This document shows positions 44,136-46,453 of a stretch of 64,000 nt of DNA, piece after piece (the first letter of the stretch is position 1; each line of letters begins with the position of its first letter). Origin of the DNA: Bacteroidaceae bacterium (GTDB lineage: Bacteria > Bacteroidota > Bacteroidia > Bacteroidales > Bacteroidaceae). The notes below the pieces were generated by a model that saw nothing but the letters and a program-made list of their open reading frames with translations, ran no database searches and was not told where the DNA came from. The DNA lies in contig JAFOCV010000045.1 in assembly GCA_017381015.1 (NCBI GenBank), positions 5,628 through 69,627 on the forward strand, given 5' to 3'. A program made the translations under genes and the position numbers.

Positions 44136-45323
44136 ATGAAAAAAAATTTTTTGATTGCTGGTGCCCTTTTAACATCTTTATTTATGGCATCATGTAGCGA
44201 GGACGATGGTCCTGCGTATGAAAAACCACAAACCGTTGAACGAGCTATCAAGCCTAATACTGAAATGTATAGTCAAATGCTATTTGACGATGAGGTTATA
44301 GAGGAAGCTATTGACTCTGTAATCAACTTTGGTACCGATGAGCATCCAGCTCTATTCTATGTAAACCAAAGTCACAAGGTTGGTGGTGTAGAAGTTCCTG
44401 CTGGATTGGCAGATTTAAATCACTCATTCTTTACATTAAACAGAGAGGAGCATGAAAATTTTATCCGCATTTTTGCTGTAGCTTGGGGAGTAACTCACCA
44501 CACAAATCTCACATTAGAAAATAAAATTCGTGCTTATCAAGATCTAGCAGGTTTCTTGAAGTCTAATAATATCGAATTAGCTCAACTTGTATATCTTTGT
44601 CAGGGTAGAGCAGATAGACTCGAAGCTGCTATTCAAATAGCAGATGAATTTAAAACTACTCGAGCTACTAGCCAGAATACCATGGCTTTGAATCATCTTT
44701 ACAATAATATGTTGAGAAACAACGTTGACCCTATCGCCTATTATCAGGAGATTAAAAAAATTGGTTTCCCTGAGGATGAAACAAGCATCAGCCGTGGTCC
44801 TTCTGCTTCAACTGTAACTTCTGTTGTTAAGGCTGTTGTCAAGGGTACTGTATACTTGTCTAAGTTTATCGTAGCCTTTGTCAAGAATGGAAAACCCGTC
44901 GTTGATATTAAGAATCAATACACCAGTTATTTACACCAGGATGAACTTGATGTAATGAAATACATTGATCCTGCAAGAGTAGAAACAGGTACTTATGAGT
45001 ACAGATATGGCTCAAAGTCTCTTCCTATGGCACAAATTAAGTTCTCTATTGAAAGCTATTACAATAGCAAGAGAAAGAATGACAATGGTAGATATATTTC
45101 TCGCATTGGTATGATTGTTAGTAAGGTTAAGGCAACCGCAGGTATGCATGTAACTGGTGAAACAACCTTTAATCCAGGTGTATTCAGATTTGAAGGCGAT
45201 AATATTATTGCGATTGGCGGTGGTGAGGTATATATCAGCTACGGAGACTGCTGTTGTAATAATAGAAGTGGTCGTGTAAGATTTGAGGTAGACGGCAAGA
45301 ATGGCTACAAAAAGACTAATTAA
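44136..45323 (+). CDS. surface lipoprotein of unknown family with C-terminal YGDCCC signature (paralogue 1)
   Basis: 395 aa. It has a lipoprotein signal LFMASC followed by an acidic SEDD. Blocks shared with the next gene are VINFGTDEHPALF, TRATSQN and ISYGDCCC...FEVDGKNGY. Confidence 0.7.
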   Translation: MKKNFLIAGALLTSLFMASCSEDDGPAYEKPQTVERAIKPNTEMYSQMLFDDEVIEEAIDSVINFGTDEHPALFYVNQSHKVGGVEVPAGLADLNHSFFTLNREEHENFIRIFAVAWGVTHHTNLTLENKIRAYQDLAGFLKSNNIELAQLVYLCQGRADRLEAAIQIADEFKTTRATSQNTMALNHLYNNMLRNNVDPIAYYQEIKKIGFPEDETSISRGPSASTVTSVVKAVVKGTVYLSKFIVAFVKNGKPVVDIKNQYTSYLHQDELDVMKYIDPARVETGTYEYRYGSKSLPMAQIKFSIESYYNSKRKNDNGRYISRIGMIVSKVKATAGMHVTGETTFNPGVFRFEGDNIIAIGGGEVYISYGDCCCNNRSGRVRFEVDGKNGYKKTN

Positions 45324-45361
45324 ATAATACTCCCAAAAATAGTTTCTAAACATTCAACAAT

Positions 45362-46453
45362 ATGAAAACATTAAATAGATTATCACTTCTTGGCCTGTCA
45401 ATGTTGGCCATGTTTAGCATCTCTTCGTGCAATGAAGATGTTACCACTCCAGAAACCCCAAATCCTGAGGGTATTATGGAATTTAAGGAAGGATATGTTA
45501 TTACTCGTGAATTAAGCTACGGAGACTCAGTGGTACTAAAAATAGAGGACGTTATCACAAACTTTGGTACAGAAGAGATTCCTGTTCTATTCCCAATTAA
45601 CAAGTCAATTGAAGGTAGCGAGGAATGGAGAAATACTACTCATGTAATTAGCAGAGAAGGTTTAGCACACCTAATTGAGGTATGGGCTAATACACACGAT
45701 ATGGCTCTTGAAAGTAGAGAGGACTCAATGCTAGTTTGTCACGATATATTCGCTTTCTTCTTTACCAAGAAGAGCGACATGGGTCTATTCATTAATCTAT
45801 TGAGAAAGGGTAATTCCTTCGAAAGAATGAAGGATATAGCTACAACAGCTGCAGACTATAATATTCCAGTAGATGAAGCTTTGAGAATATATAGCGACAA
45901 CAAGGAAACATTAGAGACCAGAGGTACCGCAAAGAATATCATTGGCATCATTGGTGGTATAAAGGATTTGTATGATGTTTGGAATGATTTTTCAAAGAAT
46001 TCTACTCCAATTGCTCAGGCAGTAAACAATGTATCCTCTTTCATCTCGCCTCAAGACGAAGACTATAGAAATTACAAATTAGGCAACAAATTTAGCTCTA
46101 GTACCTACAAACTGAAATATTGGGTGTCTAAGTGGTGGCACTCTAAGTTTGAATTCGTAGTTGAGGGGTATGTTGGTACACATCCCACAATTCCTGGATA
46201 TTTCATTCCAAAATCACAGATTAGAACAACCTATATTGATGTTAAAGGTCCTGAATTTATAGGCAAGGGCGAATATAGCTACTCACCTGTTATTAATGTA
46301 TCTCCCTCATTCGATTATCCTGTTGTGCAAGCTAACGGACAGGTTAAGGTTACCTATGGTGATTGTTGCTGCTATAGATTTGTTTCTTACCTAAATTTTG
46401 CTCTTAATGGTCAGACTGGTTACTCCGTAATTTCGTATGACAATGGTAAGTAA
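45362..46453 (+). CDS. surface lipoprotein of unknown family with C-terminal YGDCCC signature (paralogue 2)
   Basis: 363 aa, 38 nt after paralogue 1. It has a lipoprotein signal FSISSC followed by NED. The shared blocks are VITNFGTEEIPVLF, TRGTAKN and VTYGDCCC...FALNGQTGY. Confidence 0.7.
   Translation: MKTLNRLSLLGLSMLAMFSISSCNEDVTTPETPNPEGIMEFKEGYVITRELSYGDSVVLKIEDVITNFGTEEIPVLFPINKSIEGSEEWRNTTHVISREGLAHLIEVWANTHDMALESREDSMLVCHDIFAFFFTKKSDMGLFINLLRKGNSFERMKDIATTAADYNIPVDEALRIYSDNKETLETRGTAKNIIGIIGGIKDLYDVWNDFSKNSTPIAQAVNNVSSFISPQDEDYRNYKLGNKFSSSTYKLKYWVSKWWHSKFEFVVEGYVGTHPTIPGYFIPKSQIRTTYIDVKGPEFIGKGEYSYSPVINVSPSFDYPVVQANGQVKVTYGDCCCYRFVSYLNFALNGQTGYSVISYDNGK

Follow-up and report, generated by a model that had tools for sequence, protein, structure and literature searches.

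Bacteroidota encode two-component pore formers, the CDCLs, as tandem lipoproteins processed by signal peptidase II (SpII); these proteins are activated by proteolysis and are defined by a match to PF01289 (Thiol_cytolysin) (PMC11169675). Here we describe a tandem pair of lipoprotein genes, A and B, in a 64,000-nucleotide stretch of DNA from an uncultured gut Bacteroidaceae bacterium (GCA_017381015.1, contig JAFOCV010000045.1), hereafter the window. Like CDCL-S and CDCL-L, A and B are adjacent same-strand genes for two paralogous SpII lipoproteins (~340-500 aa), and both systems occur in Bacteroidota as part of the accessory or mobile DNA (PMC11169675). CDCLs are cleaved at an Arg in a poorly ordered region (PMC11169675), and A and B have a conserved Arg or Lys in a predicted disordered linker. 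CDCLs carry PF01289, YGR/GG motifs and the CDC D1-D3 fold, whereas A and B give no PF01289 match, and CDCL loci include an immunity lipoprotein, whereas A-B loci have no conserved third gene. We therefore treat the CDCL analogy as functional only: membership in the CDCL/MACPF group was rejected for lack of PF01289, of a Foldseek match in the PDB and of a PDB profile match, the adjacent SpII pair being shared but insufficient.

Two other groups of proteins invite comparison. Lectin-fused toxins include LlpA-type bulb-lectin bacteriocins and chimerolectins that join a lectin to an aerolysin-like part. Remote homologues of A and B likewise join the C-terminal module to a Tectonin or bulb-type lectin, without a signal peptide; A and B themselves have no lectin domain, and their putative effector module matches no Pfam toxin family (aerolysin, MACPF, actinoporin). 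Surface lipoproteins of Bacteroides reportedly capture small nutrients, as does the B12-binding BtuG. Such proteins resemble A and B in their acidic export signal and likely surface or vesicle display, but they show no homology to A or B, which have no linked TonB-dependent transporter and are rare and patchy in distribution.

The lipoprotein pair

As the original prediction had it, A and B are two same-strand open reading frames (ORFs) separated by a 38-nt gap (Table 1). BLASTP aligned the proteins over nearly their full length (E=9e-17, 21% identity), and by this alignment they are true, if diverged, paralogues. They share an N-terminal block (NFGT-D/E-E...P-x-LF; IDSVINFGTDEHPALF in A, residues 59-74, and IEDVITNFGTEEIPVLF in B, residues 61-77), the YGDCCC motif, and a C-terminal F-x-x-x-G-x-x-GY block (FEVDGKNGY in A, residues 383-391; FALNGQTGY in B, residues 346-354), all of which had been anticipated. 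A further proposed block, TR(A/G)T(S/A)(Q/K)N, was rejected: TRATSQN of A (175-181) and TRGTAKN of B (186-192) do not occupy aligned positions, and their resemblance is probably due to chance. In pairwise and multiple alignments, TRGTAKN of B instead falls on S-R-G of A (219-221), just before a hydrophobic helix.

The lipoprotein export signal (LES) defined experimentally in B. thetaiotaomicron is CS(D/E)2, also K-(D/E)2, and proteins need its acidic residues at +3/+4 to reach the surface and to be packed into vesicles (PMC6222051). The C-S-E-D-D of A is an exact CS(D/E)2 match, and the C-N-E-D of B has Glu and Asp at +3/+4. A lipobox Cys followed by acidic +3/+4 residues is thus found in both proteins, in line with the lipoprotein signals predicted for them (C20-SEDD and C23-NED). 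Of the 40 core representatives whose lipobox can be recognised, 33 carry two or more acidic residues within +2 to +6. The export motif suggests that A and B are exposed on the cell surface.

The tandem arrangement is constant. All ORFs in the collected loci were searched with hidden Markov models, and an A-type gene was immediately followed by a B-type gene in every distinct locus with enough sequence (19/19; gaps -4 to 49 nt); in these loci, the genes thus always occur in pairs. Within a locus, A and B are 20-31% identical, and A-A and B-B identities reach down to 26%. The distance matrices of A and B are correlated at r=0.96, a value reached in 0 of 5000 permutations. By these comparisons, A and B are separate ancient clades, and the view that they would act together as a functional pair is strongly supported.

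The family is rare, at ~100 clusters, and its distribution is patchy. Word-indexed searches of 5.8 billion protein clusters returned 4 relatives of A and 6 of B, and an exhaustive profile search of 1.84 billion representative proteins gave 102 matches at E<=1e-3 and 43 at E<=1e-30. A scan of one genome per species (185,579 species) located 10 loci, all in uncultured Bacteroidales/Bacteroidota (a P. distasonis metagenome-assembled genome (MAG), Sangeribacter, Alistipes, Muribaculaceae and Draconibacterium), and metagenomes of the Joint Genome Institute (JGI) contributed 14 more. Members of the core clade are known only from Bacteroidota MAGs and metagenomes.

Family assignment and predicted structure

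No above-threshold match to A or B was found in Pfam-A, NCBIfam, PHROGs or PADLOC (best E>=0.01, to unrelated short stretches). Pfam searches of 75 family members (E<=0.5) returned nothing recurrent, and neither phmmer nor a profile found anything among PDB sequences. AlphaFold 2 (AF2) gave a good model of B from an alignment of 75 sequences (predicted local distance difference test (pLDDT) 84.8, predicted template modelling score (pTM) 0.75) and a model of moderate quality for A from 11 sequences (pLDDT 72, pTM 0.65). Common to both is an architecture of three N-terminal β-strands and five or six helices, then a disordered linker, a further helix, and a C-terminal sheet of ~10 antiparallel strands, several of them 14-16 residues long. 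Foldseek found no match at E<=1e-3 for either model in the PDB (entries to April 2026) or for the A model in BFVD. The weak matches comprise latexin/cystatin, hotdog (2gvh), NTF2-like, CapZ, BPI, LptE and MHC-like platforms, with helices on a long antiparallel sheet as their common theme; none is significant (best E 0.15, template modelling (TM) score <0.25). The expectation of no recognisable family therefore holds across Pfam, NCBIfam, PHROGs, PADLOC, PDB sequences and Foldseek against the PDB. The pair belongs to an unannotated lipoprotein superfamily, whose novelty consists in having no detectable relation to characterised families or solved structures. Conservation across the superfamily is confined to one Asp, one Tyr and a few Gly, with no enzyme or catalytic residue pattern.

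Both proteins have a linker carrying a conserved Arg or Lys and, after it, a helix of ~25 aa. The A model has pLDDT <50 across residues 214-253, and the helix there (VVKAVVKGTVYLSKFIVAF) reaches a mean hydropathy of 1.46 over 19 aa, the highest in the protein and above A's own signal peptide. In the B model, pLDDT is <50 for residues 187-202, and the helix is amphipathic and glycine-rich (IIGIIGGIKDLYDVW), with the highest helical moment in the protein.

Distant relatives (E 1e-13 to 1e-3) are mostly lipoproteins of the same layout, some of them high-GC and proteobacteria-like. All four that are readable on contigs with flanks are single genes, not pairs; two more contigs are too short to tell. 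The superfamily signature reads A-K-F-A-W-x-I-I-K-D-N-x-P-V ... S-x-L-x-x-x-D-x-x-x-x-N-Y ... G-x-x-G-F. In three remote members without a signal peptide, the N-terminal domain is replaced by lectins, whereas the C-terminal helix and β-module are kept. One of these, P0107, has a Tectonin domain scoring above threshold (104 bits) and is encoded on an Lsr2-containing contig of actinobacterial type, where an ISL3 transposase adjoins it. Because lectins are fused to this unit in remote members, the C-terminal helix and β-sheet form an independent module that has been combined with different targeting domains, which points to a design with one domain for targeting and another for the effector function. 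Toxins directed at carbohydrates usually pair a lectin with an effector.

The contigs of relatives outside the core clade provided several further observations. P0106 and the Tectonin-fused P0107 each have an ISL3-family transposase gene as a direct neighbour (L034, 1872-2954; L038, 9792-10928), a hint that the superfamily travels with mobile DNA. The single-gene P0081 (L036, 1-4514; GCA_016183835.1) is situated between a full glycoside hydrolase family 38 (GH38) α-mannosidase gene and a 151-aa ORF matching the GH38 C-terminal domain, which suggests a local duplication or insertion. The high-GC single-gene relative P0072 (499 aa; L032, 1322-6673) is followed by genes for two ~600-aa secreted α/β-hydrolases, TAP-like (Abhydrolase_4), which may be proteases and would then be of interest for proteolytic activation.

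The YGDCCC hairpin

In both models, YGD closes a long strand, and CCC with an adjoining aromatic residue (Phe or Tyr) makes the turn to the next strand; in the B model, pLDDT is slightly lower at this turn than in its flanks. The motif is invariant in the 11 closest sequences, and both subunits of a locus almost always carry it. The 51 core representatives divide into 33 with CCC (some with CCCC), 7 with two Cys, 4 with one and 7 with none, the variants including YGDALC, YGDILC, YGDSWA and YGNRVT. Two loci (L002 and L010) have a degraded motif, YGDALC, in A only, B retaining YGDCCC. None of the 24 distant relatives has CCC; they present the same tip without Cys and typically with hydrophobic or aromatic residues (GWFQSF, WLFQNF, SLFQSK; GWFQ(N/S)F type). 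Since the triplet is absent from all 24 distant relatives and lost from several core members, it is a clade-specific elaboration of an exposed hydrophobic tip rather than an ancestral functional centre. The conservation foreseen for CCC is thus real among the closest sequences and in much of the core clade, but does not extend to the distant relatives. A literature search for the YGDCCC motif found nothing.

Genomic context

The pair and ~0.9 kb of upstream non-coding DNA make up an AT-rich islet (Table 1). Each gene has a GC content of 0.375, against 0.484 for polA and 0.497 for the next gene downstream, so the predicted contrast with the flanks is borne out. The gene order is DeoC, polyprenyl synthase, polA, the A-B pair, a GH123 gene, cysK-like (PALP), desulfoferrodoxin, rimP, nusA and infB. 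The islet therefore sits, small and AT-rich, in a core region, between housekeeping polA and the GH123/BNR gene. Of the two flanks named originally, polA is correct; the immediate downstream neighbour is the GH123/BNR gene on the minus strand, with the cysK-like gene beyond it.

Table 1. Features of the A-B locus, numbered from the first position of the window.
Feature	Position	Strand	Description or basis
AT-rich islet	43250..46750	.	GC ~0.36; gene pair and ~0.9 kb of upstream non-coding DNA; composition profile
63-nt direct repeat, left copy	43674..43736	+	Repeat search; 86% identity; spacing 2898 nt
Candidate Bacteroidota -7 promoter box	44069..44076	+	TAAATTTG (TAnnTTTG); ~60 nt upstream of gene A start; read from sequence
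Gene A, lipoprotein, 395 aa	44136..45323	+	Identical to MBQ5912103.1, annotated 'hypothetical protein', Bacteroidaceae MAG
Gene A lipid-attachment Cys20 and acidic export signal SEDD	44193..44207	+	Context LFMASC20-SEDD
Gene A low-confidence linker with conserved S-R-G (219-221), then very hydrophobic Lys-striped helix (227-250)	44790..44885	+	pLDDT, hydropathy, family alignment
Gene A YGDCCC, residues 369-374	45240..45257	+	Predicted turn between the last two long β-strands
Gene B, lipoprotein paralogue, 363 aa	45362..46453	+	Identical to MBQ5912104.1, 'hypothetical protein', same Bacteroidaceae MAG
Gene B lipid-attachment Cys23 and acidic N-E-D	45428..45439	+	Context SISSC23-NED
Gene B disordered linker ending T-R-G (186-188), then amphipathic glycine-rich helix	45917..45997	+	NIIGIIGGIKDLYDVWNDFSK; pLDDT, helical moment, alignment
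Gene B YGDCCC, residues 332-337	46355..46372	+	Predicted hairpin, its turn lying between strands 321-334 and 339-349
Intrinsic terminator of the A-B operon	46501..46543 (46501-46537 plus T-run)	+	17-bp stem then T-run; terminator scan
63-nt direct repeat, right copy	46572..46634	+	Brackets the pair together with the left copy

A terminator scan found no terminator between A and B and a strong one after B (RNA fold -24.1 kcal/mol, z = -6.3); the genes form a self-contained 2.3-kb two-gene operon with its own terminator. The sequence TAAATTTG upstream of A is a candidate -7 box: it fits the TAnnTTTG consensus of Bacteroides promoters, which lies outside what a sigma-70 scan covers. Two copies of a 63-nt direct repeat, against 0 expected per 64 kb, bracket the pair. 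Within the repeat are a TAnnTTTG-like box and a short TCAAG-TTTA-CTTGA hairpin, and each copy has a 22-nt A-rich repeat just beyond it (43664-43685 and 46645-46666). Neither the 63-nt repeat nor the intergenic regions match Rfam, and the 63-nt repeat is absent from viral contigs and from 16 other family loci; no flanking direct repeats were found in four other loci examined. The 63-nt repeat is specific to this genome and could represent insertion boundaries, paralogous promoters or small RNAs.

Upstream of A, ~1.2 kb (42941-44136) has no credible ORF and is AT-rich from ~43250. At this place, a 72-aa gene is called in the matching metagenome contig L001; stop codons interrupt it in the window, and it was therefore not treated as a gene. 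A tblastn search with the neighbour ORFs of other loci found no remnants of them in the window at 42301-44200 or 46441-46800. Directly after polA, a 151-aa ORF (42486-42941, +) encodes a protein whose N-terminus is hydrophobic (VAIMAC) and whose body is rich in Lys and Glu; the ORF is conserved in L001 and matches nothing in Pfam, NCBIfam, PADLOC or PHROGs. The GH123/BNR gene (46778-51790, minus strand) is convergent with the pair, has its own terminator (46743-46708), and encodes a 1670-aa secreted protein with GH123 N-terminal and catalytic domains and a weak BNR/sialidase-like region (Pfam).

Elsewhere, the neighbourhoods of the pair differ between genomes and are not conserved. All-against-all BLAST of flanking ORFs across loci found no conserved third gene, and no accessory transporter is conserved beside the pair. 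The neighbours that recur are generic two-component sensor/regulator domains (5 loci), glutaminyl cyclase (4 loci, duplicate contigs counted once), and cargo or surface proteins sorted by the type IX secretion system (T9SS; 3 loci), with Por_Secre_tail domain neighbours in L018 and L019; the remaining recurrent neighbours are found in just two or three loci each, among otherwise unrelated genes. The surveyed loci show no recurrent T9SS machinery near the pair, the T9SS-related neighbours being only cargo with a sorting domain, and no sialidase except for the window's own GH123/BNR neighbour. A suggested link to T9SS machinery, sialidase or immunity genes is thus unsupported by the survey. Single loci add two observations. 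In the metagenome contig L003 (46-7106), the pair lies just downstream of genes for a 4'-phosphopantetheinyl transferase and a large nonribosomal peptide synthetase, the latter with condensation, adenylation, carrier and terminal reductase domains. In the P. distasonis MAG (L008, 3913-9802), two ~980-aa lipoproteins with acidic export signals FNAC-EDE and FSC-SED, the second without a Pfam match, are encoded directly upstream of A-B on the same strand and within one low-GC stretch with the pair.

A scan of viral contigs in IMG/VR found no relative of the pair, and a tblastn search with B gave no match among 50,697 phage and 72,556 plasmid records; the suggested phage link is thus unsupported. 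A defence-system or phage protein was likewise rejected, given only noise from PADLOC and PHROGs and no viral, phage or plasmid homologues. We read the pair as an autonomous, horizontally mobile accessory cassette, because it has its own terminator, an AT-rich islet, a bracketing 63-nt repeat, non-conserved neighbourhoods and a patchy distribution. In the P. distasonis MAG, it occupies a different chromosomal site from that in the window, again in a low-GC stretch (0.30-0.39).

Interpretation

Our leading but tentative reading, which may well prove wrong, is that A and B are the two components of an effector that acts on membranes, in all likelihood a toxin used in antagonism or cytolysis. It draws on the obligate pair, the autonomous cassette, the export signal, the linker and helix, the shuffling with lectins, the hydrophobic tip, the CDCL precedent and the lack of an enzyme signature. 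Both proteins would be lipidated, flipped to the cell surface and, from their acidic motif, probably loaded onto outer-membrane vesicles. The N-terminal β-hairpin and helical-repeat domain would serve as a targeting or regulatory part, and the disordered linker with its conserved Arg/Lys as a protease-activation site. The putative effector module would comprise the strongly hydrophobic or amphipathic helix and the sheet of unusually long antiparallel β-strands, and the exposed hairpin tip with CCC and its aromatic residue may be a loop that contacts the membrane or target, a role suggested by the GWFQ(N/S)F-type hydrophobic and aromatic residues at this position in distant relatives. Once released or cleaved, A and B, possibly as a heteromer, would act jointly on the target membrane through their hydrophobic helices and hairpin tips.

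Several results weigh against a membrane-active effector. The toxin or pore former of the original prediction gains indirect support from the lectin fusions of the C-terminal module and from the hydrophobic helix after the linker, but neither Pfam nor Foldseek against the PDB links the proteins, by homology or by fold, to a known pore former. Specifically, A and B (E<=1) and 75 members (E<=0.5) gave no PF01289, MACPF or other toxin-family Pfam match, and aerolysin, ETX-MTX2, actinoporin and other β-sandwich pore formers gave no Pfam, PDB-sequence or significant Foldseek (PDB) match. Among the 50 Foldseek matches listed per model, there is no CDC/CDCL entry (the CDC domain 1-3 fold, a central bent sheet with two helical bundles, is that of 8G32/8G33), and the sole MACPF-complex entry is 7nyd (E 1.4, TM 0.04-0.07). 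The hydrophobic helix could be merely a buried core helix of the modelled alpha+beta wrap fold. The surveyed loci have no conserved immunity gene or activating protease beside the pair. For the lectin-fused proteins, homology reaches significance but is modest (E = 3e-5 to 5e-4), and the bulb-type B_lectin domains of P0098 and P0099 score below the Pfam threshold (27 and 22 bits). The mean net charge of the A and B helices (+0.9 vs -0.8) scatters widely, and we did not rely on this weak trend towards charge complementarity as evidence for a heterodimer. Finally, every family member comes from an uncultured organism.

The models raise an alternative that we consider doubtful, namely a surface receptor or carrier heterodimer that holds a hydrophobic ligand (lipid, bile acid, quinone or vitamin) on cells or vesicles, with long curved sheets around hydrophobic helices as in helix-grip, TULIP, LolA, hotdog or cystatin-like wraps. 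Antiparallel strands of 14-16 residues with helices packed on them, the compactness of the B model (pTM 0.75) and the absence of a catalytic residue pattern would suit such a carrier, as would the weak Foldseek matches of both models, which are consistently α-on-β wraps; Bacteroides surface lipoproteins that capture small nutrients are well known, B12 capture being an example. Those fold matches are all non-significant, however (best E 0.15, TM <0.25), and the pair has no consistent neighbour among TonB-dependent transporters, SusC/D or ABC importers. A rare, patchy, cassette-like distribution is unusual for nutrient uptake, and the leaderless lectin-fused relatives fit an effector better than a nutrient receptor. 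The cysteines suggest something else again: that the hairpins are a thiol centre for metal, cofactor or redox chemistry, with three thiols each from A and B beside the conserved Asp. Such a centre might coordinate a soft metal, with Cu(I), Zn, Fe and an Fe-S cluster as candidates; it might also respond to oxygen as a switch, or belong to a covalent adhesin that exchanges disulfides with host mucins. Triple-Cys runs are expected to be rare; the motif is invariant in the closest 11 sequences, at least two Cys are kept in 40/51 core representatives (CCC/CCCC in 33/51), and the motif falls in an exposed turn of slightly lowered pLDDT in almost always both subunits. We nevertheless regard a thiol centre as unlikely, and the proposed metal or cofactor role is weakened as a core function: several core members have lost the motif, two loci have it degraded in A alone, and 24/24 distant homologues have hydrophobic or aromatic residues instead. 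No metal-homeostasis or redox genes recur nearby, and no known metal-binding family is matched. A literature search on how disulfides form in the cell envelope of Bacteroides returned nothing usable.

A structural or adhesive pair with neither a membrane-active nor a ligand role (an adhesin, S-layer-like coat, phage-receptor decoy or variable antigen) strikes us as quite improbable. The surface-export signals on both proteins, the accessory cassette with its patchy distribution and AT-rich islet, and the T9SS-sorted surface proteins among neighbours in other loci are compatible with it. The proteins have no Ig-like, fimbrillin or repeat adhesin domains and no phage or viral association, and their buried-looking motifs and hydrophobic helix are conserved beyond the needs of a passive coat. 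Phase-variation machinery (invertible promoters, recombinase) gave no sign of its presence next to the pair in the window. What probability remains belongs to something outside these four readings.

Significance

The observation itself is real and more than chance, and its original description is essentially correct. In its boldest form, which we think unlikely, the proposal is that A and B would be a new class of lipoprotein toxins that attack membranes as two components and have a fold not seen before, with no relation to CDC/MACPF, aerolysin or ClyA. The helix and long-strand module would also be borne by lectins in other phyla, and the triple-Cys hairpin would serve as a thiol, redox or metal trigger, or as a membrane anchor, in anaerobic Bacteroidota. 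Here 'new' denotes the lack of a detectable relation to characterised families, not a demonstrated mechanism.

Whatever its function, the pair is a clean, testable unit: it represents a ~100-cluster superfamily, with one confident model that has no PDB neighbour and an unusual conserved Cys-Cys-Cys hairpin. Should A and B prove to be a membrane-active two-component effector, they would constitute a structurally new weapon class in antagonism among gut Bacteroidales, beside BSAP/MACPF, CDCL, BcpT and type VI secretion system effectors, and their C-terminal module would be a portable effector domain shared with lectin-fused proteins of other phyla.

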